Shown here: piece after piece, positions 2,351 to 64,000 of the stretch
Layout of the letters: each line of letters opens with the position of its first letter
Numbering within the stretch: the first letter of the stretch is position 1
Virus record (IMG/VR): IMGVR_UViG_3300042257_000233
From: an uncultured virus (IMG/VR IMGVR_UViG_3300042257_000233)
Taxonomy: Duplodnaviria > Heunggongvirae > Uroviricota > Caudoviricetes
Direction: 5' to 3' (one strand)
DNA length: 64,000 nt
Program-made: the position numbers and the translations under genes
The notes under the pieces: model-generated
Told to the model about the DNA's origin: nothing
Databases searched by the model: none
Seen by the model: the letters and a program-made list of their open reading frames with translations, nothing else

Positions 2351-2695
2351 ATGCGTGATGAATCTTTGCTCTCGGAATACTATCCGGGAATCGCTATTGT
2401 GTCGCCGGGGCTGGCTGATGAAGTCATCACCCGGTCGGGTGGGATATGCGAACTTTGCGGGATGCGATTCGCAACGGAGATTCATCACATAGCCGGGAGA
2501 CGCAGAAAAGCACATGCAAAGAATCTGCTCCACCTGTGCGAAGACTGCCACAAGCCGCCGCACGGGGTGCATGGAGACGCGGAGTTGAACGGCTCTGTAA
2601 TGAAGAAGTATCAGGAATGGTGCCTTGGTAATGGCTACACAGAAGAAGAAACCAGATTTTTACTCGGCACTAAGAGCGGGAAGTTGTACATATGA
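2351..2695 (+). CDS. HNH endonuclease
   Basis: CELC...EIHHI...NLLHLCEDCH; ATG 2351 after AGGAGG; overlaps TerS. Confidence 0.8.
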   Translation: MRDESLLSEYYPGIAIVSPGLADEVITRSGGICELCGMRFATEIHHIAGRRRKAHAKNLLHLCEDCHKPPHGVHGDAELNGSVMKKYQEWCLGNGYTEEETRFLLGTKSGKLYI

Positions 2696-3141
2696 AAGAA
2701 GCAAAAAAACGTAAAGTTGGGGCACCCCGAAAGTTCGAGACCCCGGAAGAGCTTGCAGCAGCGATAGATGACTATTTCCAGAATGGGATAAGTAAGCGAC
2801 AAGTGGTGGTAGGGAAAGGGGAATCTGCAAAGACTATAGAGGTAGAGATTCCGACTGTTACCGGATTGTGCATACACTGCGGATTTGCAAGCAGGCAAAG
2901 CCTTTATGATTATGCAAAAAAAGACGGTTTTGCTTACATTATAAAAAGAGCGCAGCTTTTTATCGAAAATGAATACGAAGAATTGCTACAGCACGGCAAC
3001 GTCACAGGTGCTATTTTTGTGCTGAAAAACATGGGATGGATCGACAAGCAGACGATAGACAACAATGTAACAGTAGACAAGTCCGTAGAAGAACGTGCAA
3101 AAACGCTTGTGGATGAGGCACTTGGGCGCACAAATGGATAG
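2692..3141 (+). CDS. terminase small subunit, module A (P22 gp3-like)
   Basis: GAPRKFETPEEL...DYF...PTVTGLC...GAIFVLKN pattern; upstream of TerL. Confidence 0.85.
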   Translation: MKEAKKRKVGAPRKFETPEELAAAIDDYFQNGISKRQVVVGKGESAKTIEVEIPTVTGLCIHCGFASRQSLYDYAKKDGFAYIIKRAQLFIENEYEELLQHGNVTGAIFVLKNMGWIDKQTIDNNVTVDKSVEERAKTLVDEALGRTNG

Positions 3142-3288
3142 TGTATTTATACTACCAGAACCGAGATCGTTCGTTAGAAGCGATATTTCGACGCCTAATA
3201 ATCTGAGTGAGGTAGACTCAGATATGCTATTTTGCCGAAAATGGGGATTTTGTAAACACCATAGTTTGCAAGAGGTTACACTGGTAAA

Positions 3289-4890
3289 ATGAGAAAAGAG
3301 GCACTTTTCAGGCTCGAAGAGCAACCTGTAAAAATAATCCGCAAGCTGGCAGAGATCGACAAAGCCAAGGCGGTAGAATTTGCCAAAATGGTAGCAGCTG
3401 AGCCCTTGAAATACTGGTGCCCGAACCTCGTACAGGAGCAGATGATTGCAGAAACGGTTGCAGCGCAGCAGGAAAGTCCTGTGTCTACAGTACTGTTTAC
3501 ATGCGGCAACGGCGTAGGTAAGACAACGGCGGTGGTGAATATCATCTGCAACCTGATATATGGGCCGCAGAACGGGTGGTTTGATTATCCGCTGTTCAGG
3601 AACTGGCCATATCCGAAGCACATTACCCTTGTTACCACACCGGGGAACATATCGGACAACTACTTTTCAGAGTCATCGGGTGCACCATCATTTCAGAATT
3701 TTTTGGCCGGTAGGGACGTAACCTACAGCAAAGATGGCAAAAATCACATCTCTAAGGTTAAGTTCGGTGGTACTCCGTGGAGCCTGCGAACGATGACGTA
3801 CAATCAGGACAAATCTGAGATGGAATCCTTCACGACCGGTGTTTTTGTGTTCGACGAGCCACCACCAGCGCACTTCTGGGAAGCTGTCCCGGCACGGACA
3901 AGAAAGGGCGCCATTATCCTAATGCCAATGACCCCGCTGGACTGCGACCCATACGTGCAGGACGAGATTATAGACAAGGCAGACGCTAAGGTGCCGGGAT
4001 ATAGGCACATAACAGCATCGGCAACACAGGTATTAGACGACCAGCCACGGGGACATTACCCAAAAGCAGTATTCGAGGCACAGCGGGAACGGTACAGCGA
4101 TGAAGAGGCAGAGGCCCGTGTGGACGGGAAGCTCATGTATTTCTCGGAACGGATTATTCAGGTTGATGAGAGCGTACATCGAGTTGACCCGGAAGACTAC
4201 CCGCTAAAACCTAACTACCTTTATTATCACGTCTTTGACCCCGGAGATGGTAAGCCTAATGCAGAGCTGTGGGGTGCTATTACACCAGAAGGGCGAAAGA
4301 TTGTCTTTGCAGAGGCCCCCCTGGATCAGTCGAAAGACTTCTGGGATATGAAAGGTGGAACGACCGTGAAAGACCACATCCAGCAGTGCCTATTCAGGGA
4401 AAAGGGGTTTGAGAAGCGGTACGGCTTTAAGATGAACTTTACCCGCATTGTTGATTACCACTTTGCGAACCAGACCCGGGGTGGGCTGAAAACGAATCTT
4501 TGGGCTGATTATGCAAGAGAAGCTAAGAAGCTTGGGGTCTCCTTCCATCTTAACCCTTCATACAGCACTACCGGGACAGGTGAAACGGAATTGATATTCG
4601 GTCACAAGCACCTGAGAAACAGCCTTCAATACCTTTCGGATGGGAAGCCGGGCTTTGTCTTTTACCGGGAATGTTATCACTGCTGGAGAGGGATTACACA
4701 CTATGTGCGGAAACGAGCCAAGACAGAGGCTGAAATGATGCAACCAGCAACCACCAGAAAGATCGTGCAAAAGTATAAGGACATGGTGGATGTAATGCGG
4801 TACTTCGATTGCCATGAGGCTTATTTCCCCAAGAAAAGAGATAAGAGCAGCCGCAGAACAACCAGCAACGGAGTTTATAACACGATATGA
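3289..4890 (+). CDS. terL: terminase large subunit, module A
   Basis: Walker A GNGVGKT, Walker B VFVFDE, nuclease FDPG...DMVDVMRY. Confidence 0.9.
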   Translation: MRKEALFRLEEQPVKIIRKLAEIDKAKAVEFAKMVAAEPLKYWCPNLVQEQMIAETVAAQQESPVSTVLFTCGNGVGKTTAVVNIICNLIYGPQNGWFDYPLFRNWPYPKHITLVTTPGNISDNYFSESSGAPSFQNFLAGRDVTYSKDGKNHISKVKFGGTPWSLRTMTYNQDKSEMESFTTGVFVFDEPPPAHFWEAVPARTRKGAIILMPMTPLDCDPYVQDEIIDKADAKVPGYRHITASATQVLDDQPRGHYPKAVFEAQRERYSDEEAEARVDGKLMYFSERIIQVDESVHRVDPEDYPLKPNYLYYHVFDPGDGKPNAELWGAITPEGRKIVFAEAPLDQSKDFWDMKGGTTVKDHIQQCLFREKGFEKRYGFKMNFTRIVDYHFANQTRGGLKTNLWADYAREAKKLGVSFHLNPSYSTTGTGETELIFGHKHLRNSLQYLSDGKPGFVFYRECYHCWRGITHYVRKRAKTEAEMMQPATTRKIVQKYKDMVDVMRYFDCHEAYFPKKRDKSSRRTTSNGVYNTI

Positions 4891-5111
4891 CGGAAATACG
4901 ATTTAACAACTTACTCGAAAGGGTAAACAATGTTCTACCGTACAGCTTGCAGATAATGTACGATAACTCGACGCTGACCTTGTATTCTGTCAGTACAGAT
5001 GAATATGATATGCAGATATTAACCAGACAGCTCGACTATGGAACCGGTAGCATGGAAGAGTTTATACCGTTTTTAGCTGGTATGTTAGACAGGAGTAGAT
5101 GTGGAATATAA
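4887..5111 (+). CDS. hypothetical protein
   Basis: Overlapping ORF between TerL and portal. Confidence 0.5.
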   Translation: MTEIRFNNLLERVNNVLPYSLQIMYDNSTLTLYSVSTDEYDMQILTRQLDYGTGSMEEFIPFLAGMLDRSRCGI

Positions 5112-6969
5112 GCGTTATTTAGAAGATCAACAAGAGTTTAAGATAGTAGATATTATACAAGACCTGCGAGAAGATCAGAGTGAGCGGCAGGATTGGGATG
5201 TACAGGCAACAGACGGGTGGCGTATACGCAACAACCAGCTCCCAACCACAGAATCTATCGATAACCTGAAGAATTTCAAGGGTAAATGGTTTGTAGATAA
5301 CTGGGTTAAAAAGTCATTCCAGTGGTTGCGTTCCTACTTCACAGGTGCCGACCTGTTTGCAGACGTGAAGTCTTACGACGGGATTATAGAGCCAAACATG
5401 GAATTGCTGGAGAATGAAGTTAACTTCTCAATGACTCTAACCAATATCCAAAATATTGCAGCTGAAGCAGTTGAAGATAAGAACTACGTCGGTTATGGTG
5501 TTGTTCGTAGCTATTTCGATCCGCGCAGGATTAATGCTTTCTGGAAAACAGGGACGCCAATGCTGGAGCATATAGACGCGCGCAATGTATGGTTTAAGAA
5601 ATATGGAGACAGAATAGCCAGAATATTCCATGCAGAGGCTGTAGACACAGAAAAGCTAAGAGAGCAGGTGCGGCAATACGACCCAGACTTGGCTGACACA
5701 ATTAAGGAAGATGAAGGTTCAGACGGTCATGTAAAGTTCCCAAACGTGAAGGGAAGAACAATTGTCTATACCGGGGTTTATTGCAAGACAATACGCACAC
5801 AAAAGCGTGAGTTCATCTATGAGTTTACCGACTATGAAACCGGTGAGCAGAAGGAAGAAAACTGGCTGGAGTTTGAGGAAGAGTGGCAGGAGATGAAAGG
5901 GGAAGATCTCCCGGAAGGTGTTTATGTGGCAGACAGCCCCATTGATGTTGATATAGATTGCTATTTTCAGGTTATGTTCATCCCTTCTCAGGCAATATTG
6001 ATCAAGCAGCCAATAGTACAGGATGGGAAAACCGTCTGGAAAGAGGCTATCAATATAGGCGAGTATTGCAACTATCACTTTCTGCTTGGAAGCAAACAGA
6101 ATGAAAGCAACTATCCCTACGGTGATGCCTATGACATGAAGGACATACTTGACCTATCGGTTGTGTTTATGAGTTCCTTGGCCAAACAGATCGGCAATAT
6201 GAACAGGCCACAGCCCCAGATATTTGAGGATGCAATCGTAAATCTCAATGAGTTTATGAATGCGCACTGGAAATCTGATTTTACAACGATACTTGACCCT
6301 GAGTTTTTCCGGGAAAATCCTAACATCTCCCCCGATATGGCTGTGAACTATAAGCAGACACCAATCAATGACCGACTTTTCCTTGTGATGCAGAACTACA
6401 TTACAGAGGCCATTAAATCATCTACTGGTGCGATTGATAGTGCAAGGGGTGAGCAACAATACAGTGGCCAATCAGGAGTGCTGGCAAATCAGCTGCAAAT
6501 GGCAAGTCAAACATATTTGAAGTCAGACGAGAACCTTTACCGTGCATTCATTGATAGCATTTTGAACTGGCTAATGCACACTATAGTGGAATATCGTCAA
6601 TTTGCACACACCGTAAAGGGGTTGGATGCAAACGGGATGCCAACAGCAAGAGACGTAAACACTACGCTATACAACACCCTGAAAGACGATGACTATTTTG
6701 TAGAGGCAAACATGCAGCCGAACCCAGAGCAGCAGAAGCAGATTGAGCGTCAACAGGTGATGGAGTTGCTCGCTGCTGGTAAATTCCCACTTCGTGCAGC
6801 ATTGCAGGTGATGGACATATCGACAATTAACGTAGATCGCGTAATGGAAGAACTCGACCGTGAGCGCGGTGTAGATCAGATTGTAGCACTTATGGAAGAG
6901 TATCCAGAACTGCCACAGATAATCCAGCAGTATGTGCAAACGCAGCAAGGAGGCCAAGGTGCAGTATAA
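5101..6969 (+). CDS. portal protein, module A
   Basis: 622 aa after TerL; G...SGQSGVLANQLQ motif typical of P22-like portals. Confidence 0.8.
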   Translation: MEYKRYLEDQQEFKIVDIIQDLREDQSERQDWDVQATDGWRIRNNQLPTTESIDNLKNFKGKWFVDNWVKKSFQWLRSYFTGADLFADVKSYDGIIEPNMELLENEVNFSMTLTNIQNIAAEAVEDKNYVGYGVVRSYFDPRRINAFWKTGTPMLEHIDARNVWFKKYGDRIARIFHAEAVDTEKLREQVRQYDPDLADTIKEDEGSDGHVKFPNVKGRTIVYTGVYCKTIRTQKREFIYEFTDYETGEQKEENWLEFEEEWQEMKGEDLPEGVYVADSPIDVDIDCYFQVMFIPSQAILIKQPIVQDGKTVWKEAINIGEYCNYHFLLGSKQNESNYPYGDAYDMKDILDLSVVFMSSLAKQIGNMNRPQPQIFEDAIVNLNEFMNAHWKSDFTTILDPEFFRENPNISPDMAVNYKQTPINDRLFLVMQNYITEAIKSSTGAIDSARGEQQYSGQSGVLANQLQMASQTYLKSDENLYRAFIDSILNWLMHTIVEYRQFAHTVKGLDANGMPTARDVNTTLYNTLKDDDYFVEANMQPNPEQQKQIERQQVMELLAAGKFPLRAALQVMDISTINVDRVMEELDRERGVDQIVALMEEYPELPQIIQQYVQTQQGGQGAV

Positions 6970-7077
6970 CATCGTATTTGAAGAGCATGAGCACAACGAT
7001 AGTGTTGTAGGTACTGTAGAAGTACCAGAATATATAACAACATGGGGCAATGAAGAATCATCCCCGAAGGAGACAAA

Positions 7078-7794
7078 ATGAGTGATAAGGTAAATGATGC
7101 TGGCAACATTACCAGCGACAATGTACAAACCGCACAAGTTGACGGTTATGAAGTAAGCGTGAAGCAGCTTGAAGATGGCAGCCATGAGATTGTAGTGCCA
7201 GATGATGCACCTGATACAGATGAATTTGTTGAGAAGGTGAAAAAGGCACAGTCTGTTATGGGAATCATCAACAAGAAGGGCTTCGACGTGAATCGAAAGC
7301 GAGAGGATTTGGAAAAGAAAGAGGCGGAGCTGTTAAAGCGCGAACGGGAGCTACAGTTAAAGGCAATTCCAAAGGAATCCTTACCAGAACTAACTGAGCT
7401 GGTTTATCAGGAGCTTGGCATTAAAACGGAAGATGAGCTTGATGATGTTACACAGGCTGAGTTGTTAAAGGCTCAGACGAAAGCACTCAAGACGTTGGAT
7501 GAAATGCGTAAAAAGAGCACTGATAACCAAGGGCTAATCCAGTCATTCATCAACGATGGCGGTGACTACAATGGATTGGTAGAGTTCGCAGCTATGCTCA
7601 ATGCCCCTATTTCCAAGGCTCTCATTAACCAATACACTAAAACAAACGGGACGAAGAGAAAGTTTTCCACAGAAGAGCTATCCAAGATTCAGGGTCAGGC
7701 GATCAGTGTTGTTCGGCGTGGCGGAGCTGCACCGGGGACAAAGATGAGCAAAGCTGAACGGATATTTAATGCAGGTGGAGGCCCTCGTCTCTAA
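7078..7794 (+). CDS. putative scaffolding protein, module A
   Basis: Charged helical protein between portal and capsid. Confidence 0.6.
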   Translation: MSDKVNDAGNITSDNVQTAQVDGYEVSVKQLEDGSHEIVVPDDAPDTDEFVEKVKKAQSVMGIINKKGFDVNRKREDLEKKEAELLKRERELQLKAIPKESLPELTELVYQELGIKTEDELDDVTQAELLKAQTKALKTLDEMRKKSTDNQGLIQSFINDGGDYNGLVEFAAMLNAPISKALINQYTKTNGTKRKFSTEELSKIQGQAISVVRRGGAAPGTKMSKAERIFNAGGGPRL

Positions 7795-7806
7795 TAGGGA
7801 GCTGAA

Positions 7807-9144
7807 ATGGCTTATGATCCGACAATAAATAGTGGTGCTCGTGGCACCGCTCAAGAAAACTTGCTGAATGGGATTAATTCCCGCCGCGGGTTTAGTGTTG
7901 ACTACAAGATTGCTGAGCTGGAACCAAACGAAACACAGTTTGTGTCCACGCTTTTGGCGTTAAAACGGAAACCAGTTAATGACCCAGATCACAAATATCT
8001 GGAACATCGCCAAGCGTGGCTTGACAATCGTAAGGTTTATTCCACAACGACAGTTGCATGTTCTGCAACATACGCAGGTAAGGCATTTACATCATGGACA
8101 ATTGACGATGGTGACGGTGCTGCACCAGATTACTTTACCAAAAGTGCAGAAGAACCTTACGTGCTTCAAGTTGTAGATACAGACGACACATCGAAATACT
8201 GTAACTTCCTTGTGACGGCGGTAACTGATACTGGTGAAACTACCGCGACCATTTCTGTTGTACAGCTTACAGACAAACCGGGGTTTAACGTCGCAGACAA
8301 TGATCCTATTTATATCATCGGTACAGCGTTTGATGAAGGTGGTAACAAGACTACCGCATACAGTGACATTGTTTCTGTTAAGTGGGCTTCTTGCCAGATT
8401 TTCAAGACTTCGGTTAAAGCGTCTCGTACTACAATGAAAACATGGACTGCCGGTGGTGATGAGTGGGATCGTTTGCAGCGTGAAGCATTAAAAACCCATA
8501 AGGTAGACATGGAGCGAAGCTTCCTGTTTGGCTCTCGCGTTATCGGTAATGCCACAACAGCTGCTGCAAGTACGGCAAACGACCCATTTGGGGCACCTGT
8601 AGCTACTCAGCTTGGTGGCACACCCACTAAACCAGTGCGCACATCAATCTCCATCCAGCAGGCTGCACGTTGGGCCGATGAAGTTGGCATGGGTGGATGT
8701 CGCCTATTCAATAATACTGAAGCAGACTACAAATACGCAAACTTCCTTGATGACATGGAAGAGCTGTTTGAGTTTGGCAGTGACAGCCGCTACTTCTTTG
8801 GTGGTCAGGGTGTCCTCACTATCCTTACCAAAATGGCACTTGACACAAGCACAAACCTTACATCCGAGCAGGGTGTAAACGAGGCTGGTGTTAAGTATAC
8901 CAAGTTCATGACACCTCACGGTGATCTGAAATTCGTTCGCCACAAATTATTCCGTGGCGTTTATGCAAAGAAAGCCTTTGCAGTTGATATGAACAACATC
9001 GATCTGATGGTGTTTGATGGTACGTTTGTACGTGAAGACGTTCAGACACCGGGCTATGATGGTCAGGAAAATGAGATCATTTCCGATATGGGCTTGATTA
9101 TCAACCTTCCAGAAGCTACCGTAGCTGAGTTCAACTGGCAGTAG
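7807..9144 (+). CDS. major capsid protein, module A (SU10/DUF5309-like)
   Basis: CQIFKTSV...HKVDMERSFLFG...TPHGDL pattern; synteny. Confidence 0.85.
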   Translation: MAYDPTINSGARGTAQENLLNGINSRRGFSVDYKIAELEPNETQFVSTLLALKRKPVNDPDHKYLEHRQAWLDNRKVYSTTTVACSATYAGKAFTSWTIDDGDGAAPDYFTKSAEEPYVLQVVDTDDTSKYCNFLVTAVTDTGETTATISVVQLTDKPGFNVADNDPIYIIGTAFDEGGNKTTAYSDIVSVKWASCQIFKTSVKASRTTMKTWTAGGDEWDRLQREALKTHKVDMERSFLFGSRVIGNATTAAASTANDPFGAPVATQLGGTPTKPVRTSISIQQAARWADEVGMGGCRLFNNTEADYKYANFLDDMEELFEFGSDSRYFFGGQGVLTILTKMALDTSTNLTSEQGVNEAGVKYTKFMTPHGDLKFVRHKLFRGVYAKKAFAVDMNNIDLMVFDGTFVREDVQTPGYDGQENEIISDMGLIINLPEATVAEFNWQ

Positions 9145-9151
9145 GGGGTGA

Positions 9152-9547
9152 ATGATGAAATCACTAAATGGCTATAAGGTTCTTATTTATTCCGGCCTTG
9201 CTCTCCCAGACAGTGCTGGAGATAATGTAACATCTGTTTCAACACCAGCAATAAACGATGATTTGTCTAACAAAAAGTTTATTGTTCAGGCTGAAATCAC
9301 AGAGGCTTGTGCTGGTAATGGTGGTCTTGACATTGCAATTCAAGGCTCTTTTGATGGTGATAATTGGGTTGACCTTGATGCTTCTGTTGGGCTTGCTGTT
9401 GATACTACTGGGCTTAATACTGGGATTGCTGTTGCTGATCTTAGTAATCTCTATGCTCCAATGTATCGCCTTAAAGCATATACTAACGGAACAGATACAC
9501 AAGACGCAGCGGCATTAACACTGTCTCTTGCGTATAAACCTGTATAA
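9152..9547 (+). CDS. putative capsid decoration/auxiliary protein
   Basis: Small beta-rich protein right after the capsid gene (IQGSFDGDNWVDL). Confidence 0.5.
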   Translation: MMKSLNGYKVLIYSGLALPDSAGDNVTSVSTPAINDDLSNKKFIVQAEITEACAGNGGLDIAIQGSFDGDNWVDLDASVGLAVDTTGLNTGIAVADLSNLYAPMYRLKAYTNGTDTQDAAALTLSLAYKPV

Positions 9548-9554
9548 CAACAAC

Positions 9555-9572
9555 GGGGCGGTTCGCCGCCCC
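9555..9572 (+). terminator. GC hairpin with UUCG loop after the capsid genes
   Basis: GGGGCGG-TTCG-CCGCCCC followed by TTATT. Confidence 0.65.
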
Positions 9573-9592
9573 TTATTCTGGAGGCATTAGAT

Positions 9593-9946
9593 ATGGCTAA
9601 ATTTATTTCAAAACGTGCGAACGTAAACTTTGAGGGGTGTGCATTTAGAATGTACACGTATAGCACCGAAGAGCCCGAGCGGATACAACGGTTGCGCCGG
9701 TCTTATTGGTATGACAAAGATTTTATTGAGCTGCGCGATGGTGAGGAAGTGGAAAGCACCAATGGTGAAGATGTACTGTCAAGCCTGACAACCGAAGAGA
9801 TAGAACGCATTCTGCGAGAAAGACGAGCTTCTGTTGATTATAGTGAGTGGAAATATCAAGACCTCTATAATGAAGCAAAAAAGCGCGGTGAATCGTTCTC
9901 AAAGCGTCCAACAAAAGATGAGTTAATAGGAATCTTGAATGGATAG
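9593..9946 (+). CDS. virion-module protein with C-terminal HeH/Rho-N-like motif
   Basis: KYQDLYNEAKKRG...TKDELIGIL. Confidence 0.55.
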   Translation: MAKFISKRANVNFEGCAFRMYTYSTEEPERIQRLRRSYWYDKDFIELRDGEEVESTNGEDVLSSLTTEEIERILRERRASVDYSEWKYQDLYNEAKKRGESFSKRPTKDELIGILNG

Positions 9947-10169
9947 AAGAAGTGTAAACCAGAAGCGACGCACTGGGAAGTTGCCCGGCGTGTTCCCACC
10001 TGCACCACATACACACAGGGTGTTTTATAATGATTTTGAGATTGACGGCAACCTTACGGTTTCTGGTGACGTTAGCGTTTCTGGGTCGGTCACTTCGGAT
10101 TTTAGCAAGATTATATGTTATGAAAATAAAGTTGTTTGTTACGAGAACAACGTTGTTTCATTGGTGTGA
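9939..10169 (+). CDS. short fibre-like protein
   Basis: IDGNLTVSGDVSVSGSVT beta-repeat. Confidence 0.45.
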   Translation: MDRRSVNQKRRTGKLPGVFPPAPHTHRVFYNDFEIDGNLTVSGDVSVSGSVTSDFSKIICYENKVVCYENNVVSLV

Positions 10170-10172
10170 TGA

Positions 10173-10547
10173 ATGGATTTAAAGACTGTCGGGATTACAC
10201 TTTTATCAAGCACTGACCTGGTAGATATGCAGACTGTTGGGAAAACAGATTTATACACAGTTCCAGCAGGTTATACCGCATACATAACGCATGTTATCAT
10301 TCGCAATCCTTCAGCATCAATGGCTGGTGGTACCGATTATGATTTTGGTGTTGGGGCAACCGCTACTGGATGGAGGCAAACGGTTGGTCTTAATACAATT
10401 ACATCTACGGCAGATTATCGCGTTATCGATACAAACAATGTAGAAAGGACTGAATGCGCAGCGGGTTCTGTTTTTGGTATTTATGTTAATACGGGCACAA
10501 CCGCTGCCTGTACCGCAACGATAGACGTGTTTGGCTATCTTGCGTAG
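10173..10547 (+). CDS. putative structural protein
   Basis: LYTVPAG motif, T/G/A-rich beta protein. Confidence 0.5.
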   Translation: MDLKTVGITLLSSTDLVDMQTVGKTDLYTVPAGYTAYITHVIIRNPSASMAGGTDYDFGVGATATGWRQTVGLNTITSTADYRVIDTNNVERTECAAGSVFGIYVNTGTTAACTATIDVFGYLA

Positions 10548-10555
10548 GAGATTAT

Positions 10556-11209
10556 ATGGCAACGACGAGAAAATTATCTGAAATAGTAACCGAGATTTGC
10601 ACAAGATTAAATGATCCTGATTTGGTTAAATATGCTAATTCATCAACCTATATAGGCCGGGCATCTGCATACTTCTTTCTTGTTATACGGGAAATGCTTG
10701 ATAACCCCCGGCGATACGGGCTAAAGGAAATTGATTATCGCGGTGCTATTCAACGCGAGGAGGTCGCTATCGGGGATGCCTCCACCGAGAACGGCCTCAC
10801 CCTTTTCTCGTCTTTGTCTGGAAATCCTGAAATTGTGCTTGATGTTTACACAAATCCAGATAGCTCAAACACACAATTGCCGTACAATATTGTTACAATA
10901 AATGAGGAATATCCATCATTTGCTGTAAACGTTGAGAGTAAAAACCTAAACTTTTACACACCAAAGGTTGATGTTTATACGGATCGTGGCTGGTATCTTG
11001 TTGAAACTGGTATCCAGTTATATCCAAAAGAGGGGACAGGCACACAAAGCTATTATTTCACCGTTAAATATATCGACGAACTTGATTTTGGAAGCTACGA
11101 TAAAGATACAGAGTTTTATATTGGTGAAGATGGGCTTTTCTCACTGCGGTTTATAGATAAGGCAATCGATTTAACCGTTGCACGGCTTTTACAGGAACGC
11201 AATATATGA
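10556..11209 (+). CDS. putative head-tail adaptor, module A
   Basis: LSEIVTEICTRLND...IQLYP pattern; precedes the nozzle. Confidence 0.6.
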   Translation: MATTRKLSEIVTEICTRLNDPDLVKYANSSTYIGRASAYFFLVIREMLDNPRRYGLKEIDYRGAIQREEVAIGDASTENGLTLFSSLSGNPEIVLDVYTNPDSSNTQLPYNIVTINEEYPSFAVNVESKNLNFYTPKVDVYTDRGWYLVETGIQLYPKEGTGTQSYYFTVKYIDELDFGSYDKDTEFYIGEDGLFSLRFIDKAIDLTVARLLQERNI

Positions 11210-14200
11210 AACGTGTAGTATTGCCATTTACCGGAAGCATGAACGATGTTGTTGACAGCTCTGCGCTTAAAAATGATGCTCTCAATGATATTGTTAACTA
11301 TGAACATAAAGACCCCGGTAAAATAACCAAGCGAGTATCGGTCGCTACGTATAACGCGACATTTAACTCTATAATTTTTGCGACATTTGATGAGGTTATT
11401 TATCAGCCTGACGAACCATTCTACCCAACGCGTCTCCCATCGGACGCCTATTCAGATGTGCTATTCCCTGTGTTTGGTGTAGATGCTGACGGTTATTACA
11501 GGCTTTGTCTGTTTTATCAATATGGTGCGTCTTCTTGGACGTATGAGGACATAGTAATAGATGGTGTTACTTACAACGATGATTCCGTTCTGCGCATTTC
11601 ATATACCGGTAACAAAATGAACATAGCTGATGGTGTAAACAAGTCTCATTTTGTTACAATAAACAAGGATAATGAGTTTGTTTATGCAATAAATGAGATT
11701 CCAAGGCCACTGAATAAACCAAAGGGCGTTGACACCACAGAATACAACCCGTCCATCTTCCAAGAAAATCTTGAAACCGGCAACTACATAAATTACTGCG
11801 GCGTGTATCGCTACTGGTACACATTTGTCACAGAAGATGGAGACGAAAGCAACCCATCACCGGCATCCAACTGGATAGATATGCAGTTCTTTAAAATTGA
11901 TGATGATGGTGTTGACGAGAGACAGGTTAAATCGGTAACAATATCAAACCTTAAAATTACGGATAATGCCGAAGCGATTAAAGATGAGATTAAGTATTTT
12001 AGGATTTATCGTGAAGAGCTTCAATATACAAACGGAATTGAGACTCGGACTCCTTTGTTTATTAAAGAGATAGAGATTTCAGACAAGGACGGCGACAACC
12101 AGTTCACCGACACTATTGCCATTCTTGCCGACAGTATCACCACTGATATTAATTATGAAAACGACTCTTCGCCGGTTGGCGTTGATGTTTGTAACGTTGG
12201 TGGAGTAACCGTTCTTGGTGGGATTAAAAAACGTATAGAGTTCCCATTTGCATTTGATAACTACCGCGAAGTTAAGATAACCAACAATAACGCAAAGAGC
12301 TTTGTTGATGGTGTTGTCCGCATTAAATTCGACGATATTGACGACTTTGGTGTTGACCCTGAAGTGCCAGACTGGGATTATTTGATGGCGAATAAAGATA
12401 AAGTGCGGATGTTCGACAATGACCTGACAACCCCACTCCCTGTTGTATATGAGGTTGACAGCGGCCTTGATACAACTGGATATGTAGACGGAGTAACTGA
12501 TGGTGATTTTTCTTCTGCACTCAATTGGACTACTGGTAGTAACTGGGTGATTTCTGGTGGTAGTGCCTCAAATACTGGAGCTACAGAAGATACTCTTTCA
12601 CAAGATGGAGTTATGGTTGATAAGGGGGCTAATTCTTATCATATTGTCTCTGCCGATTTCCAAATATCATCTGGCGGAGACACCGACGGGCTAACTATCC
12701 AAGATTATAAGCTGCATTATGGTAGTGGTTCGGGCCGCAGGAATGAGATATTTATTGTTGGCGGGAACGGGGCAGACGAAAAATTAAGCATCACAAAGTC
12801 TGCCGGGGCAAGTATACCGTATCTTGACAACGTAAAGGCTTACAGCGATAGTGGAAGCCCGTTTACTCAAAACCTAACAGACCCGGAAATGGAGAATCCT
12901 TCAGAATGGGCCATTGAAACCGGGTCAAGTTGGGTGCATAATACCGGATATTGGAGAAACGAGGAAACTACTGAAAAAAGCAGTCTAACAGGAGCCACAA
13001 CAACGCCAATTGTGGCAGGGACTAAATATCTTGTGACAATGTATTGCAACATTAAGAACGCCTCACCCGGTGATGAGTTGTTTTACGTTTCACTTGGTAC
13101 AACCTATGGACAAAATGGTTTTAGCATAACTGGAAATGGTCAACAATATATCACCCGTGTGGTTGAAGCTGGTAGCGGTGATTGCTGTAAAATATGGAAA
13201 ACAGACGATGGGACTGGTGATTTTTATTATGTTCGTGTTGTTGAAATTGATTATACAGTAAACAGCATAACAACGTATGTCAAATTGCCAGAAATACCAA
13301 TATCTGACAGCAAGACCATATATCAGACTTGGTGCAATAATGGCGGTGCAGAAGGTGTAAACAAAGCGGAATGGCGTGTTGCTGCCTATGGACAGTTTGT
13401 TGATTACAGCAATGCAATAGATTGGGCTTCACAAGAAACCTTTAAGAATGTATCCGTTGAAACAAACAACACAAAAGTATGCGCACCGCTTCAAATTACC
13501 GATGAGGTGTTTAACCGTGCAAACGCAAACATGAACGGTGAGATTGTTGGTAACTGCTCATTTTATACAAATAAAATCTGTTTACTCCCTGCTCTTGGTG
13601 TTGATTTAACAACATCAACAAAAAGCATAAGAATAAGCAGCGCAGTATCACCACCAACTGGTGTTGAGTTTAACTTCCCAGTGGAGCTTGACATCCCCGA
13701 TCGTGGTATTTTTGCTGCTGGATTTGTGAGTATAGACGGGACATATTTAACGGTAGACTCTGCGATAATAGACTTTGAGTTTGAACGCGAGGGGACACAG
13801 CATAACAGACTTTATATTGACTCCTCAGGTAACTGGAAGTGGACGGGGCAAGGAACAACATATACATTTTCAAATATTACAGCGGCAAGCACAGCCGCAG
13901 TGAAAGATTATTTCGTCTGCATATCTTGGGCCGAAGACGATAAAATAAGTCTGTTTGTATACAACCTTACTGACGATGACTTTAGTTATGAGGAAAAAAC
14001 TGGCAGTGAAAGCTATGCAAGATACCAGAACTTGAATATTATATGCCTTGGGTCAAGCAAGGATTCGTTTTATCCGGTACGTAATTCATATTTTGCAAAC
14101 TGGATAGTTGATACGAGCTTTTATCTTTCTGCTTCTGATGAAGCAAACATAAACGCAGTGCAGAACATGGCAAACAGAATGCCATGCACAAACGATGCCG

Positions 14201-15381
14201 TTATTGGATACGATTGGGTTAACGACACGGAAAATACAAACATCGTAATTGGCGATATTGAGAGTGCTGAATATGAAGATTATCTTGATTGGGTAGCGTA
14301 TTCAAAAGTGAACGGTCTTTCTTTCCCCGATAAATACATCAAAAAAGCCGCTGGTGAGGTTTTAAGGATAGTGCCGGTGCCGTCATACCTTAGGAACAGA
14401 ACGTCGTTCTCAAACTCAATTGTCGCGTTTTACAGGAATGGATTTAACGTATTCCCGTTAGAGGGCGACCCGTCCACGTGGAATGATTCTGCGGAGAACC
14501 TGATACCAGAGCGAAAGCGTGATGGTTTGGCTGCACTTAATTCTGTTGTTGTCACACCGTATGGGTTATTCTGGAGATCAGAGGCTGGTGTGATGATGTG
14601 GAATGCGTCACAGTACTCAAACGTATCGCTGAACAGGATAGATATTCCAATAAAAGATAGCATGGTGGGTATTTATATTCCGCTTGCGCAACAATATATC
14701 CTTCACGATAATGATGCAAGCTCAGAAACACTCGAAATATCAATAGCCGATGATAGAATTACACGAACAATCGGAAGCTGGGACACAGACACATACAAGG
14801 TTGGAGATAAGATATTTATATCAGACATGGATACTACGGCTAATAATAAGGGTTTTGTCCTTACTTACGTCAGTTCTTGGCAGCTTTGCATAGATGGTTC
14901 GACAGATGCTGAGACAGAACGGGCAACAATATCAACAACAAAGTCGTATGTTTATGACATCCCAGAAGATAAGTGGACAACATTCACTGGGCTTGATATT
15001 TTATTTGCATCGGCACTAAGTGGCGGTAACACAATTGAAAATGTAAACTTGTTCCTTGACAGATATGGGGAGATTAATAAATATCCAGACTATGACCAAA
15101 GTAAAACAAGTGTTAGTTCTTATGCAACAAAGATTTACAACACATACTACTCAGACTATGAAAACATTGAGCCAGTTATTGAGGGTTCTGGTACTTATGA
15201 GATTGTATCAACTGACACACAGAACTCAAACAGCAAAACAACAACTGGTACGGTTAACAACTACAAAGTTAATCAAATACCGTATGGCTATTATGGAGAA
15301 AAAATTCAGATAAAAATAAAAGATGCTGATGCAATAAAGAACGTTGTTTTAGCATATCGCCCAAGGAATACAAGGAGATAA
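11206..15381 (+). CDS. tail nozzle/stabilisation protein with inserted carbohydrate-binding-like domains, module A
   Basis: 1391 aa; YTFVTEDGDESNPSP, VVTPYGLFWRSEAGV; homologous to 51477-54689 plus 59428-59874. Confidence 0.7.
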   Translation: MKRVVLPFTGSMNDVVDSSALKNDALNDIVNYEHKDPGKITKRVSVATYNATFNSIIFATFDEVIYQPDEPFYPTRLPSDAYSDVLFPVFGVDADGYYRLCLFYQYGASSWTYEDIVIDGVTYNDDSVLRISYTGNKMNIADGVNKSHFVTINKDNEFVYAINEIPRPLNKPKGVDTTEYNPSIFQENLETGNYINYCGVYRYWYTFVTEDGDESNPSPASNWIDMQFFKIDDDGVDERQVKSVTISNLKITDNAEAIKDEIKYFRIYREELQYTNGIETRTPLFIKEIEISDKDGDNQFTDTIAILADSITTDINYENDSSPVGVDVCNVGGVTVLGGIKKRIEFPFAFDNYREVKITNNNAKSFVDGVVRIKFDDIDDFGVDPEVPDWDYLMANKDKVRMFDNDLTTPLPVVYEVDSGLDTTGYVDGVTDGDFSSALNWTTGSNWVISGGSASNTGATEDTLSQDGVMVDKGANSYHIVSADFQISSGGDTDGLTIQDYKLHYGSGSGRRNEIFIVGGNGADEKLSITKSAGASIPYLDNVKAYSDSGSPFTQNLTDPEMENPSEWAIETGSSWVHNTGYWRNEETTEKSSLTGATTTPIVAGTKYLVTMYCNIKNASPGDELFYVSLGTTYGQNGFSITGNGQQYITRVVEAGSGDCCKIWKTDDGTGDFYYVRVVEIDYTVNSITTYVKLPEIPISDSKTIYQTWCNNGGAEGVNKAEWRVAAYGQFVDYSNAIDWASQETFKNVSVETNNTKVCAPLQITDEVFNRANANMNGEIVGNCSFYTNKICLLPALGVDLTTSTKSIRISSAVSPPTGVEFNFPVELDIPDRGIFAAGFVSIDGTYLTVDSAIIDFEFEREGTQHNRLYIDSSGNWKWTGQGTTYTFSNITAASTAAVKDYFVCISWAEDDKISLFVYNLTDDDFSYEEKTGSESYARYQNLNIICLGSSKDSFYPVRNSYFANWIVDTSFYLSASDEANINAVQNMANRMPCTNDAVIGYDWVNDTENTNIVIGDIESAEYEDYLDWVAYSKVNGLSFPDKYIKKAAGEVLRIVPVPSYLRNRTSFSNSIVAFYRNGFNVFPLEGDPSTWNDSAENLIPERKRDGLAALNSVVVTPYGLFWRSEAGVMMWNASQYSNVSLNRIDIPIKDSMVGIYIPLAQQYILHDNDASSETLEISIADDRITRTIGSWDTDTYKVGDKIFISDMDTTANNKGFVLTYVSSWQLCIDGSTDAETERATISTTKSYVYDIPEDKWTTFTGLDILFASALSGGNTIENVNLFLDRYGEINKYPDYDQSKTSVSSYATKIYNTYYSDYENIEPVIEGSGTYEIVSTDTQNSNSKTTTGTVNNYKVNQIPYGYYGEKIQIKIKDADAIKNVVLAYRPRNTRR

Positions 15382-15382
15382 C

Positions 15383-16066
15383 ATGGCGAATCCTTATGAC
15401 AAGTATTTGAATCGGTTGCAGAGCAAGATTTCGCAAGACCCGTATTACCAACAGGCGAGGAGAACAGCCTTTGCAACAATGCCGCAACAAAACAGCTTTG
15501 GTGCATATTTAAACAGAGAGAATGTGCCAGTTGGTGTTGCGTCTCAAATGGAACTTGATAAACAGGCGCAGAGACAGAAGTCACTCACTGGCGTGGTTGA
15601 GAGAGCCGGTGAACTTGATGTTCAGAGAAAGGAACAGATAAGTGATAAGATTGCAGAGATTAAACTTAAACGGGATGAGTATGCAAAGCAGAAAAAAGAC
15701 GCACTAACCAGAACATTGTTTGAGGCTGGTGGTGCCGCGGTTGGAGCTGTTGCAGGCACAGTCGCTGCAGTTGGGACATTGGCTGGTTCTCAAATGGGTG
15801 CCTCTGCCGGACAGATTATCGGCGGGATACAGGGGGATACTCCTGAAGATATTACCGCAGGACTTGGCAATGCAATACAAACATTCTCACAAATATCAAC
15901 AAACAAATCACTGAAAAAACTTGGTGCATCAACCGGTAAGGCAGCAGAGATATTGTCTGGGATAGAAGACCCAGCACAGAGGCAAGCATTTTTAATGGAA
16001 TTTAATGTATTACGCACAACAGGAAATTATGATGGCATCGATGATCTTATCGGTAAATATCAGTAG
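15383..16066 (+). CDS. putative ejection (internal virion) protein
   Basis: Q/A/G-rich helical protein with glycine-zipper segment. Confidence 0.6.
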   Translation: MANPYDKYLNRLQSKISQDPYYQQARRTAFATMPQQNSFGAYLNRENVPVGVASQMELDKQAQRQKSLTGVVERAGELDVQRKEQISDKIAEIKLKRDEYAKQKKDALTRTLFEAGGAAVGAVAGTVAAVGTLAGSQMGASAGQIIGGIQGDTPEDITAGLGNAIQTFSQISTNKSLKKLGASTGKAAEILSGIEDPAQRQAFLMEFNVLRTTGNYDGIDDLIGKYQ

Positions 16067-16080
16067 AGCGGGGGCGGTTC

Positions 16081-16869
16081 ATGGCTTTAGCAGAAAAAAT
16101 TAGTCGGATATGGGATGAGCAAGAGAAAACCAAACAGAAGTTTATGGCTGAGGTGTACCAAAACATGCAGCAGATTGATGCCATGAAAACACAGCGTGAG
16201 GTCGAGAACAGACAGAAACTTGAACGTGAACAACTGCGCAAAGCGCAGACAATAACCGGGACACAGACAACACTAACCGATACCGGGCAAACAATCACAA
16301 CAGCCTACGAATCTGGCCGCACTCGCATGGACGTAACAGAAGACAAGAGAACACCAAAGCCAGTTGCACCAACATACCGTGAAATTAAATCTGGTGACGA
16401 AATTATAACATTACAAAACGGAAAAGAAATTGCAAGAAGTCCACGATTTAAAGAAACACAAAAAGAAGAATTCAAATTAGATGAATACGTTAACAAACAA
16501 AAGGCTCAGGATTATGTTTCTGAAATAACCAAAACAGAAGGAAACATTGCAGCAATAAACTCTGATATAACAACAACAACCGAAGAGATAGACGCAAAAA
16601 AGGCGGAGCTTGCATCTCTTGGTTCTGCAAGAAAGACAAGAGACCAGCGCAATTTACTGAGTCAGGAAATAAGTGAACTTGAAAAAACACTTAAATACTA
16701 CAACGCAGAACTTAAAGCAGAACAGAAAAGATATATGGCTGCTACCGATGGTCTTAAAAAACTTGGCAAGAAAAAAACAAGTGCGGACGTTGGCACAACG
16801 GGTAATAACAGGTTGACTGATGATGAGCGTAACCAAGCAAACAACATAACAGGAAAGTTGGGATTTTGA
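16081..16869 (+). CDS. putative ejection protein (coiled coil)
   Basis: Synteny and composition. Confidence 0.55.
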   Translation: MALAEKISRIWDEQEKTKQKFMAEVYQNMQQIDAMKTQREVENRQKLEREQLRKAQTITGTQTTLTDTGQTITTAYESGRTRMDVTEDKRTPKPVAPTYREIKSGDEIITLQNGKEIARSPRFKETQKEEFKLDEYVNKQKAQDYVSEITKTEGNIAAINSDITTTTEEIDAKKAELASLGSARKTRDQRNLLSQEISELEKTLKYYNAELKAEQKRYMAATDGLKKLGKKKTSADVGTTGNNRLTDDERNQANNITGKLGF

Positions 16870-58761: not shown

Positions 58762-58762
58762 G

Positions 58763-59209: not shown

Positions 59210-59431
59210 ATGGATAAGCTCTATCATTTCTGCGGCTGTGCCGTAGTGGCCTTTGGTGCCGGGGTGCTGTGGAAGAACCCGGCGGCAGGCTACGGTGTGG
59301 CGGTAACGGCAGGCATCCTGAAGGAAGAAGCAGACGATCGGCCCGGCGGCAGCGGCTACGACAAACTGGATATCCGGGCTGATGTAATGGGCGCGCTGGT
59401 AGGGAGCTGCGCTGCAATGCTGGTGTTGTGA
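59210..59431 (+). CDS. small membrane protein (DK..HF...KE..D...D..AD family)
   Basis: MDKLYHF...GILKEEADD...DIRADVMG. Confidence 0.65.
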   Translation: MDKLYHFCGCAVVAFGAGVLWKNPAAGYGVAVTAGILKEEADDRPGGSGYDKLDIRADVMGALVGSCAAMLVL

Positions 59432-61467: not shown

Positions 61468-61470
61468 GCA

Positions 61471-64000
61471 ATGGCACAATATAACAGAGACCAATACCTC
61501 TTTGCACAGAAGATGACAAGTAAGTACAGCGTGCCTGCATACCGGGCAATGCTGCAACCAGAGCAGCGAGATAAGCTGCAAAAGATGCAGAACTACTTGA
61601 ATACCTATCAGCAGAATTTTGAGGCTGAGGAGCGGCAAATGGCGTTTAATACGCTGCCGCTGGACGAACGAACGGGGCAGGGATTACCACAACCACGCAG
61701 GGAGCGCATTGAATCTTTCTCTCAGATGCCGCTTGATGAGAGAACAGGGGAGACTTTGCCTGAGCGTCCACTGGAGAAAAAACCGGGGGTATTTCAGCAG
61801 ATGGTTGATGTGTTCAGGAAGAAACCGGAGCCGGCAGCAGGGCCTACCGTAGACCTGGCAGACCCACAGTCAGAAGAAGATGAACAGCTACAGGACTATA
61901 TAGCACAGAGGGAATACGCTGTGCATCGTATATCTCCGGCAAAAGCATATGAGATGATGCAGCTGAAGCCGATGTACAACCCTAATGATTACTTGAAAAT
62001 GCTTGATCTTGAAGAAGAAAAATATTACCAGAAGAAATACCAACAGATGGATGATACTGCGCGTAATGCTTTTGCTGAAGAATGGGGAATACCAGCAGAG
62101 AAAGTGTTCAGCGAATATGCACCGATAAAAGGGCCGGTTTCTGTTCCTGAAGATTACACTGGACGCGCGGGATTTGAGCCGGTGATGGATGCTGCCACAC
62201 CGACGCTCAGAGCTGAAGCGGAAGAACGCAAGCAAAGGATCGCCGACACAACCATTATGCTTGATGCATTAGCTGCACCATTTGCCGAATTGCCGGTAAA
62301 GAAGATTGAAGGGTTAGTTGATGTAACTAATGCAGCGCTTAGTAAGATTACAGGCATCAACGTACCGGATGACAGAGGTGGCGCACTGGCTGAAGTGCGT
62401 AAAGTGCTGGATGAAGTAGGCGGAGCAGCAGCGGAAAAATACACAACCGCTGCCAAGGTTGGTGGCGCCGGAGCTGGTTTAGCAGAATTTATCGTTGATC
62501 TGGCTGTACTGAAGGGAGCGACCGGGATAACGAGCACCCCTGTTCTTTTTGCCATGAACTCAATGGTAAACAATGCGCCTGAAGTGGTTACTGGGCAGAT
62601 AAGCAGAGAGGACTATCTGAAGTCAATTGGAGTGAGTGGGTTAACCGGTTTAATGTTTAATGCGACAACCGCCGCAGCACGGAGCATTGGGGCAGAGAAG
62701 GCAATAGCTGGCAAATTGGTAAAATGGATGCCGGAAAGCATGAGCGTGGGCGAAGCCGCAGCGTTGTCCGGCAAACTTGGTCGAGTATTAGGAGCCCCCA
62801 TCCCAGCAGCAGGGGCAGCGGCAGCAGGAGCAGGCAGCCAAGTGATGCAGAACGTGCTTAACCACGAAGACGATATACTGAAGGGAGTGCCAGAGAGTGC
62901 AACCCAATTAGCGCTCTACAGTTTTATTACCTCAGTAGCGCCCATGGTGGTGGGGCCAAACCGCATACGTGGTGCAGAGCTGAAGACCGGGATGAAAGCT
63001 GCACAGAAGATGTTCGATGAGACGCTGTTCAGGCAGCAGGTAATTGACCACAAAGTTCCTGACCACGTGATATTGAGTGCGCGACAGCTACGCGATATAT
63101 GGCAGACCGGCAAGCTGACAACTGCAGAAGAAAAGAGCCTGGTGCAAGAGCTGATGGGTAAAAACGATGCCACGATAAAAGATTTGATACGCAGCAAGCA
63201 TGGGCTTGATATCGAGATAGGGGCAGGCAAGATTGTGCGGCTGGTGGATAAACCATATTGGAGCAAGATCAAAGGCATTTTCCGGCTTGATCCGTACATG
63301 AAGACGGTGAAGCGTACAACCGGCGAGATGAAAGCGTACCGCACCAGCTATGGCAAGCGGCTGGGTGAGCAGCTGAATGAGGCTGAGCAGGCGATATTGG
63401 CTGGAGATACAGCAGCAGCGCAGCGCACCATGGGGCTGATAGATGCGAACCGCAAAACCATATTGAAGAATGCAGAAGGTGATGCGCCGGTGATAAAGAA
63501 GCGCATTGCTGCCATAGAAACACAATTGGCAGGAGGAGCCGTTGAAACGCAGGAACCGCTGGAAGTGCCCGCACAACCCACCAAAACAGAAATACGCGAA
63601 CAAGCCGAAGACACTACAAAGCCAAAGGTAAAGAGCAGGAAGCCGAAAGCAAAAAGTAAGAAGCCAAAGGCAGAGCGCAAGAAGCAGAAGACCTATGTAC
63701 GTACCAGCAAGGGAGTATTTGAAGTAGAGCGAGAAACTGATAAAAGCTGGATACTTACCAATGGTACCATTGCGCGCAAAAGTGCCAAAGGCAACAGCAT
63801 ATCTACCGAGATGGCATATAAGCGAAGTCTTGCCCGGCGCAAAGCACCCAGTAAACGCAAAGTAACCGACGAGGTGAACCTGCGCACCAGCAATATCACG
63901 CCAGAGCGCACACCATTTCTTGACCATTTTAAAAGCACCGGGATGCAAACCAGTGATGTTGATTTGAAGAACTACCGCATCGGGATAAAGCCATTATTCA
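61471..64000 (+). CDS. second giant ejection/polyvalent protein (truncated at window end; absent from the ORF track)
   Basis: ATG 61471 MAQYNRDQ...; no stops in the stretches I translated; in frame with the shared KPKAE.KKQKTYVRTSKG segment. Confidence 0.85.
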   Translation, partial: MAQYNRDQYLFAQKMTSKYSVPAYRAMLQPEQRDKLQKMQNYLNTYQQNFEAEERQMAFNTLPLDERTGQGLPQPRRERIESFSQMPLDERTGETLPERPLEKKPGVFQQMVDVFRKKPEPAAGPTVDLADPQSEEDEQLQDYIAQREYAVHRISPAKAYEMMQLKPMYNPNDYLKMLDLEEEKYYQKKYQQMDDTARNAFAEEWGIPAEKVFSEYAPIKGPVSVPEDYTGRAGFEPVMDAATPTLRAEAEERKQRIADTTIMLDALAAPFAELPVKKIEGLVDVTNAALSKITGINVPDDRGGALAEVRKVLDEVGGAAAEKYTTAAKVGGAGAGLAEFIVDLAVLKGATGITSTPVLFAMNSMVNNAPEVVTGQISREDYLKSIGVSGLTGLMFNATTAAARSIGAEKAIAGKLVKWMPESMSVGEAAALSGKLGRVLGAPIPAAGAAAAGAGSQVMQNVLNHEDDILKGVPESATQLALYSFITSVAPMVVGPNRIRGAELKTGMKAAQKMFDETLFRQQVIDHKVPDHVILSARQLRDIWQTGKLTTAEEKSLVQELMGKNDATIKDLIRSKHGLDIEIGAGKIVRLVDKPYWSKIKGIFRLDPYMKTVKRTTGEMKAYRTSYGKRLGEQLNEAEQAILAGDTAAAQRTMGLIDANRKTILKNAEGDAPVIKKRIAAIETQLAGGAVETQEPLEVPAQPTKTEIREQAEDTTKPKVKSRKPKAKSKKPKAERKKQKTYVRTSKGVFEVERETDKSWILTNGTIARKSAKGNSISTEMAYKRSLARRKAPSKRKVTDEVNLRTSNITPERTPFLDHFKSTGMQTSDVDLKNYRIGIKPLF
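63650..64000 (+). repeat. direct repeat copy 2
   Basis: Matches 19081-19431 and runs off the window end. Confidence 0.97.

Follow-up and report, generated by a model that had tools for sequence, protein, structure and literature searches.

The question raised by this locus is whether one virus can carry two different sets of virion-building genes. The window, i.e. the whole stretch of 64,000 nt analyzed here from the uncultured virus record IMGVR_UViG_3300042257_000233, holds two late-gene sets separated by one block of regulation and replication genes. All the window proteins that were tested are carried by a parent JGI contig of 75,196 bp, of which 11,196 bp lie outside the window. An earlier note on this DNA had considered a cointegrate or tandem of two phages, one element able to make two particle types, or a misassembly. 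Our analysis favours the last option: the junction between the first set and the block is situated inside a gene, in a near-identical stretch of two otherwise unrelated open reading frames (ORFs). We consider it likely that the window is a lasso-shaped chimera and an assembly artefact, in which a fragment of one phage (phage A) is joined to the circle of another (phage B) through a repeat of ~0.9 kb present in both phages. The window is arranged as follows.

1..2114 (-): leftward small-gene operon of phage A, running past the left window edge
2292..19075 (+): module A, late genes of phage A, ending with the N-terminal 737 codons of a giant ORF
16866-24893 (+): hybrid giant ORF, 2675 aa, with an LPD38 domain near its C-terminus
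19076-19996 (+): first copy of repeat X, a-type; the right limit, ~19967-19996, is estimated from the start of a k=31 contig of run X1
19076-40700: phage B backbone
39840-40956 (-): leftward small genes of phage B
40700-63644: module B
61471-64000 (+): N-terminal 843 codons of the phage B giant ORF, still open at the window end
63645-64000 (+): second copy of repeat X, b-type, with 0/356 differences from the circular relative G002

The repeat at the junction

Comparison of the window with itself revealed a single long repeat: 19076-19431 matches 63645-64000 with 96.6% identity and a spacing of 44,569. The second copy is cut by the window end, and both copies lie inside giant ORFs. The 60 nt upstream of the two copies are unrelated to each other, and the homology between the giant ORFs of phages A and B begins abruptly at 19076, in a low-complexity linker. 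The window ORF is thus a hybrid, with an A-specific N-terminus followed from nt 19076 by homology to the phage B giant ORF. The first copy of X differs from the second copy and from G002 at 12 positions, all in 19080-19311; amino-acid differences between the a and b types extend to nt 19619, and from nt 19620 on the protein is identical to the B-type ORF. The two phages appear from these alignments to be identical over ~300 nt or more of X, which exceeds a 150-nt read and a k-mer of 127. We infer this value of k from the 127-nt terminal overlap of G002; circular contigs of the metaSPAdes type bear an overlap of length k. As in a chimera, a near-identical repeat marks the join and is met again on the return of the path. 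With this spacing of 44,569, 19076-63644 looks like a single circularly permuted genome of 44,569 bp, and at 63645-64000 a second passage round the phage B circle would begin.

We propose the following path. Positions 1-19075 would come from phage A, an unrelated podophage whose backbone lies outside the window, and comprise its late-gene arm and the beginning of its early operon. Positions 19076-63644 would go once around phage B, a temperate podophage whose ~44.6-kb genome is circular or terminally redundant. The two phages would share the near-identical ~0.9-kb stretch X in their giant virion ORFs, from 19076 to ~19996, and a short-read assembler would have passed from phage A into X, left it on the phage B side, gone once round the circle and stopped on reaching X again. 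It follows from this path that the regulation and replication block, described previously as shared, is the backbone of phage B alone. Phage A presumably continues into a backbone of its own, the link from module A to the present one being an assembler choice and not a molecule. The junction had been placed at 19.0-19.5 kb, which is close, with homology starting at 19076; the likely switch zone is ~19620-19996.

Short-read virome assembly is described as producing chimeric contigs between similar viral genomes in PMC4247695. The window resembles inter-genome lasso contigs in that two genomes share a repeat longer than k and than the reads, the circle is traversed once, and the repeat stands at the join and on the far side; recovery of each partner alone in other assemblies is a further likeness. 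It differs from them in that the similarity is an isolated ~0.9-kb stretch and not of strain level, the packaging and head genes being otherwise unrelated.

The two phages in other assemblies

Each partner was found alone elsewhere: phage B as the IMG/VR record G002 and on a contig of 44,542 bp, module A as the IMG/VR record G003. G002, reached through the primase, is 45,291 bp long with a 127-nt terminal overlap, belongs to the direct-terminal-repeat class and has a CheckV completeness of 100%. It is collinear with the unit 19076-63644 at 94-100% identity, and of window 1-19000 it contains only matches of 144 nt and 38 nt. Identity along the window is distributed as follows.

19076-20209: 93.9%
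20209-21092: no alignment
21092-27424: 96.3%
30078-31116: 100%
31109-36437: 99.2%
37215-40665: 98.8%
40749-64000: 99.3%

Gene order and a diversity-generating retroelement (DGR) are common to the window and G002, with module B at 99.3% and the aligned right half of the backbone at 98.8-100%. They differ in the left half of the backbone, which is 94-96% identical with replaced segments, in extra cassettes of the window, and at 17 sites of the variable repeat (VR) of the DGR. Present in the window only are 28133-30014, with a methyltransferase cassette, and 778 bp at 36437-37215 (a 253-aa ORF at 36454-37215); present in G002 only are 560 bp in the right half of the backbone and 1.25 kb at window 40665-40749. 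A 144-nt part of this 1.25 kb is 96.5% identical to window 1263-1406, in the leftward operon of phage A; judging from this patch, pieces are also exchanged between the leftward early operons of phages A and B.

The first 843 aa of the phage B giant ORF are 100% identical to protein P0032 and to the translation of G002. P0032 (2663 aa) is the sole longer protein found with a B-type N-terminus and is encoded on one contig of 44,542 bp. Its last 1757 aa are identical to the hybrid ORF of the window (nt 19620-24890); nine amino-acid differences separate them within nt 19080-19619, and upstream there is no alignment. By its sequence, the C-terminal part of P0032 belongs to the backbone type of the window and not to that of G002. 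A second protein, P0013, on a contig also of 44,542 bp, corresponds to the last 784 aa of the tail hub of module B at 100%, its 5' end being cut, so that the contig starts near 52335 if it is the one carrying P0032. This contig appears to be a whole circle, running through module B, X, the backbone and module B again and ending ~27 nt short of its start, which leaves module A no space. The middle block being an ordinary phage B backbone in G002 and P0032, the suggestion of one element making two particle types finds no support.

Exact look-ups were made in a collection of 15 billion proteins, where module A proteins were found on 2 contigs, the primase on 5, the minus-strand recombinase Int(-) on 6 and hub B on 4. 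Pattern searches of IMG/VR DNA with an exact run of X and with the giant ORF's C-terminal portion each returned only G002, and the same DNA searched with the window-type stretch 19988-20032 returned nothing.

Relatives of the large terminase of phage A (TerL A) were found at 11 IMG/VR loci, two of them close. G003 (17,124 bp) is identical along its full length to window 2292-19415 (100%); it stops 340 nt into X and carries the a-type bases. The other, G004, matches window 2111-8621 at 95%. Patterns of the left operon were found in the IMG/VR contigs L059, L018 and G005, which have in common the operon and an HNH gene only, and not module A or the backbone. In G005 the A-like leftward operon and HNH lie in regions 83-96% identical to the window, with nothing else in common, and the operon continues into DnaD/O-like, DnaB, exonuclease, Gam and SSB genes; by analogy with this record, phage A should have replication genes of its own to the left of the window. 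The small terminase of phage A (TerS A) has relatives at 29 loci in metagenome contigs, the best 62% identical, and because none is close enough these loci do not show what lies left of module A. For the A-type giant ORF, the search for near proteins gave the window's own only and that for shorter proteins gave none, not even the known fragments, which makes these negatives weak.

The order of the contig is also exactly what a real cointegrate would show if the circles of phages A and B had undergone a single crossover in X. Such a molecule, an episome or an intermediate of replication or recombination, would be at least 75 kb long, with module A leading into the phage B backbone and module B leading through X into the phage A backbone. 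X qualifies as a bona fide substrate for recombination, being near-identical and in frame, and phage A carries it natively, as seen from the a-type bases of G003; the hybrid ORF is intact, and both phages occur together in the two assemblies that contain module A. We nevertheless hold a cointegrate to be unlikely. In G002, and likewise in the 44,542-bp contig whose proteins are identical to those of the window, phage B is closed on its own backbone, and module A was assembled a second time as a separate 17-kb contig. The window contains no host DNA and no att junction. By either TerL, the closest GenBank phages are 40-43 kb in genome size, and for relatives of both phages the size is 40-46 kb; heads of phages with such relatives would be too small for a molecule of 75-90 kb, and joint molecules should be a minority of the population. 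A replicon of at least 75 kb with two unrelated packaging, head and tail modules, and between them at least the immunity and replication block of phage B, is improbable on our estimate. Were the join real, the window would document a cointegrate of two phages, a rare case, and a single infected or lysogenic cell could assemble two virion types and package sub-genomic units.

Depth, composition and the origin of the backbone

The k-mer content of public sequencing runs was also considered. Twenty runs contain part of 9076-19075 and 2 contain every word of that stretch. Four runs were compared with window 27001-47000, all as Logan k=31 contigs (contigs, not reads); contigs of this type leave repeats unresolved. 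In run X1, a record of 35,342 nt covers window 28366-47000 with 0 differences at a depth of 29.2, and another of 8,429 nt covers 27001-28395 at a depth of 29. Beyond 27001-47000, their extents were derived from the record lengths. The longer one reaches ~63707, which is where the first 31-mer common to both copies of X (19109-19139) begins; the shorter one reaches back to ~19967, and a piece of it matches at 39921-39977, as expected from a 96-nt inverted similarity described below. In X1 the depth of the backbone is therefore that of module B, its sole right-hand neighbour is module B, and no second backbone converges on it. Since the records are unbroken and the depth is not raised, there is neither a second copy of the backbone at comparable depth nor a backbone shared with an abundant phage A. 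From flow balance we infer that the repeat graph, with two entries (the end of module A and that of module B), has two exits near 19967-19996, the backbone and another. A minor X1 contig, of depth 4.76, branches at 28395, and the same loose end is seen in run X3; as pure speculation, this contig might belong to the phage A backbone and hint at a ~6-fold lower depth. Runs X3, X6 and X10 hold 55-68% of the module A words and cover 27-47 kb only in small conserved pieces, at the methyltransferase ends, at 40607-40674 and at the palindrome described below; they were not used as evidence.

The depth also bears on a tandem of two lysogens, in which related prophages would stand head to tail in a host chromosome, the second backbone lying past the window end. 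The second copy of X at 63645-64000 does resemble the start of a second backbone, and the recombinases, repressor and Ant of the middle block point to a temperate lifestyle. What X1 shows is a block in single copy at the depth of phage B, unbranched and not of double depth, with no second backbone, identical or G002-like, at comparable depth. P0032 is moreover carried by one 44,542-bp contig and not by the 75,196-bp parent, and the join from the backbone to module B is the same as in the circular G002. Within the 64 kb there is one backbone, the join to module A lies inside an ORF, and no tRNA, host DNA or att-type direct repeat was found. When the primase and the MutS-like ORF of phage B were scanned against 185,579 species genomes, neither had a relative, and no prophage copy, host or att site was found there. 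The tandem proposed earlier thus receives no support, and we consider it very unlikely.

In another form of misassembly, module A plus backbone and module B plus backbone would be two sibling phages differing by a module swap, whose shared backbone was merged by the assembler. The abrupt start of the giant-ORF homology in the linker at 19076 is like a mosaic junction, in its left half the backbone diverges from G002 by 4-6% and more, which implies several backbone variants, and the leftward operons of phage A and G002 have the 144-nt patch (96.5%) in common. The X1 depths of backbone (29) and module B (29.2), and the single unbranched record from 28366 into module B, argue against such siblings, as does P0032, in which the window-type backbone is tied to a B-type N-terminus. 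The replication set of G005, the sole record with an A-like leftward operon, is unrelated (DnaD/O-like, DnaB, SSB). Composition points the same way: the G+C content at third codon positions (GC3) of the giant ORF is 0.33 in its A-specific part (16866-19075) and 0.53 just past 19076, and genes of distal module A (9.1-16.9 kb) have values of 0.23-0.41, unlike backbone and module B genes (mostly 0.45-0.71). Tetranucleotide correlations of four backbone segments with module B segments are 0.59-0.85 among the values listed, versus 0.30-0.64 with distal module A segments. By composition, then, the backbone goes with module B, and a module swap has in our judgement only a slim chance of being correct.

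Several points weigh against the chimera between phage A and the phage B circle. Local sequence and k-mer graph would be no different if a real molecule had these joins. On the first passage through X the a-type bases persist to nt 19619, and an assembler using reads and pairs could have phased this correctly. The view of the 44,542-bp contig as a full circle is built on two proteins and a length, not on DNA. X1 may be the source sample, in which case it shows the same reads through another assembler and adds no independent DNA. No continuation of phage A beyond X was found in any collection searched. Exact look-ups in the protein collection for the B giant ORF cut at 843-853 aa found none, so that the stop of the parent contig within X is only presumed.

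If the chimera is true, the 75-kb record does not represent a single virus and ought to be divided; kept whole, it would inflate statistics of genome size and gene content and suggest a biology of two virion kits that does not exist. Its real content would be a complete temperate podophage of ~44.6 kb, with an apparently active DGR, known from several assemblies, and the arm of a second, widespread podophage. The pair is a clear example of phages with unrelated head and packaging genes that share a near-identical segment of a giant internal virion protein, and such shared patches drive both natural mosaicism and assembler errors.

Gene content of the two phages

ORF listing and family scans (PHROG, Pfam) bore out the two late-gene sets of the earlier note, in the same orientation at 2.3-19.1 kb and 40.7-63.6 kb, each preceded by a leftward small-gene operon (1-2114 and 39204-40956). 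Its single repressor, primase, amidase endolysin and holin were likewise found in the window. Two tyrosine recombinase genes, the DGR and the repeat 19076-19431 / 63645-64000 are additions to that note. The gene labels held for TerL, portal, major capsid protein (MCP) and tail hub; those of scaffold, adaptor A, TerS B and ejection proteins follow from gene position only. Features of the phage A part are listed first.

74-328, 325-552, 519-734, 743-949, 946-1185, 1557-2114 (-): ORFs of the leftward operon
2312-2695 (+): HNH
2692-3141 (+): TerS A (phrog_606, E 2e-31; PF16677)
3289-4890 (+): TerL A, from feature-based Atlas score, tblastn and motifs
5101-6969 (+): portal A (phrog_156, E 4e-8)
7807-9144 (+): MCP A, SU10-type (PF17236 SU10_MCP, E 3e-28)
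11206-15381 (+): tail hub A, 1391 aa
15383-16869 (+): two small virion ORFs

Module B contains the following.

41245-54689 (+): head and tail genes as a whole
41245 (+): start of TerS B, by gene position only
42241-43878 (+): TerL B (phrog_979, E 1e-35)
43863-45722 (+): portal B, P22-type (PF16510, E 7e-50; also phrog_156)
45719 (+): start of scaffold B, by gene position only
46649-47965 (+): MCP B (PF13252, E 3e-6)
48379-49773 (+): 464-aa head-module protein with a GT2 glycosyltransferase-like segment
50820-51470 (+): adaptor B, SU10-type (PF24175 SU10_adaptor)
51477-54689 (+): tail hub B, 1070 aa
55018-56430 (+): DGR target tail protein (phrog_5302), with the VR at its 3' end (56300-56412)
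56457-56569 (+): template repeat (TR) of the DGR, 80.5% identical to the VR
56681-57736 (+): DGR reverse transcriptase (phrog_1423, E 6e-115; PF00078)
58676-59206 (+): holin with three transmembrane segments, gene transfer agent (GTA) type, from family scan

TerL A has no PHROG match, and the Pfam family Terminase_6N is reached below threshold only (E 0.027). Its Atlas feature score to terminase clusters is 0.99, with 10/10 of the best family-bearing matches in one family or clan; tblastn gave 26.6% identity to annotated large terminases of 42.6-kb phages, and the motifs NG.GKT and DEP are invariant in an alignment of 8 relatives. We accordingly annotate it as a terminase, by feature score, tblastn and motifs. 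No PDB sequence matched either tail hub, TerL A or a profile of TerL A.

When 56 ORFs were compared all against all by BLASTP, six alignments were significant; they fall into five cross pairs, three of which link set A to set B. The hubs, previously called nozzle paralogues, are indeed homologous (25% over 441 aa, E 8e-29), the giant ORFs match only from aa ~700 onward, and hub A has a marginal match to the ORF at 59428-59874 (E 0.008). The two remaining pairs are the two recombinases, and a 104-aa ORF with the giant ORF. TerS, TerL, MCP and portal gave no match between A and B in this comparison, and the TerL A profile reached TerL B with an hhalign probability of 25%. The label "N4-like" given to module B is based on PF13252 only.

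Both phages are far from cultured ones: the identity of either TerL to any GenBank phage is below 30%, and thirds of the window had no megablast match among 50,697 GenBank phage records. The tail of Escherichia phage SU10 (Kuravirus) is described in PMC9509320 as a portal-adaptor-nozzle-needle assembly with several ejection proteins. Like SU10, module A has a PF17236 capsid protein, module B has a PF24175 adaptor, and a beta-propeller hub gene follows the adaptor. Neither module carries both markers, PF17236 being found only in A and PF24175 only in B, so that by this test neither is of the SU10/Kuravirus type. The phages here further differ from SU10 in being temperate by gene content and in the best fold match of hub B, the muzzle of phicrAss001. 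Residues 1-540 of hub B were modelled from 40 aligned sequences (pLDDT 81.7) and are rich in beta-propellers. Among long matches, the tail muzzle of phicrAss001 is the best (Foldseek E 2e-7; Z 8.0, root-mean-square deviation 4.2, 239 residues). Podophage tail chains including SU10 gave Z 7.0-8.7 over 105-114 residues, a range that generic propellers also reach, and SU10 chain 7z4f_G (Z 7.0 over 114 residues) is not above unrelated propellers. The model supports a tail hub function for this protein.

The differences between TR and VR all fall at TR adenines (22/22). With a reverse transcriptase, a TR/VR pair and substitutions confined to adenines, the DGR of phage B is a canonical one, of the kind known from Bordetella phage BPP-1. 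It resembles other phage DGRs in its reverse transcriptase, in the TR lying beside a VR at the 3' end of a tail gene and in its adenine-specific changes, and differs in that no Avd-like accessory gene was identified; its background here is a podophage outside any named family. Because the VR varies relative to G002 (17/165 of the differences in 40749-64000) amid otherwise identical sequence (51.5-64 kb), the DGR appears active, and ongoing diversification is suggested. The region 48.0-51.0 kb, with the 464-aa GT2-like protein and three small ORFs, holds 108/165 of the differences between module B and G002 and forms a local divergence hot spot within a near-identical arm.

The phage B backbone carries the following features.

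24890-25345 (+): amidase endolysin, from family scan
25346-26080 (-): CI-like helix-turn-helix repressor (HTH_3), from family scan
28411-29229 (+): N6/N4 DNA methyltransferase, within the 1.9-kb insertion 28133-30014 missing from G002
32347-35406 (+): primase with CHC2 zinc finger, Toprim and a C-terminal extension, 100% identical in G002
37845-38180: Ant antirepressor, from family scan
38146-38901 (+): tyrosine recombinase, 251 aa (PF00589)
38902-38929: perfect palindrome of 28 nt, between the recombinases
39204-39839 (-): tyrosine recombinase Int(-), 211 aa (PF00589); the leftward run that includes it is 39204-40956
40468-40956 (-): ORF with MutS domain I only (PF01624, E 3e-20)

A repressor, Ant, two PF00589 recombinases, full virion and lysis sets and a genome closed in G002 are the content of a temperate tailed phage, and phage B is temperate by this gene content, integration itself being only predicted. 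The two recombinases are convergent, unusually short, reduced to the catalytic domain and 28% identical to each other; they may act as integrase, invertase or dimer resolvase. We considered this pair as a junction between two prophages and rejected it: the stretch between them is collinear with the circular G002, and the palindrome is a terminator-like hairpin that looks like a bidirectional terminator. PADLOC, run on ten accessory ORFs, gave generic reverse transcriptase matches and two weak matches at 17-18 bits, and nothing else.

The 68 nt at 40607-40674, within the MutS-like ORF, are matched with 6 differences and shared flanks by contigs of other depth in 4/4 runs (in X1, an 18-kb contig of depth 73). 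These contigs are probably bacterial mutS, and the ORF could be a clue to the host or the trace of an integration site. The 104-aa leftward ORF (39840-40154, -) matches residues 1013-1112 of the giant ORF with 53% identity (E 1e-26), and the DNA behind this match is a 96-nt inverted similarity (75%) with 20079-20174; this small early gene would be a duplicated domain of the giant virion protein. After the methyltransferase, a direct repeat of 63 nt (29578-29640 and 29727-29789, 78% identical) is intergenic and could be an iteron-like or operator array. Finally, a 38-nt GC-rich motif occurs at 1461-1498 and 2130-2167 (92% identical), in each case just downstream of a stretch of the phage A operon that lies on the minus strand. 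The motif may be a terminator or a regulatory RNA element, and it is kept in L059 (1139-1176) and L018 (27-64), which otherwise diverge.

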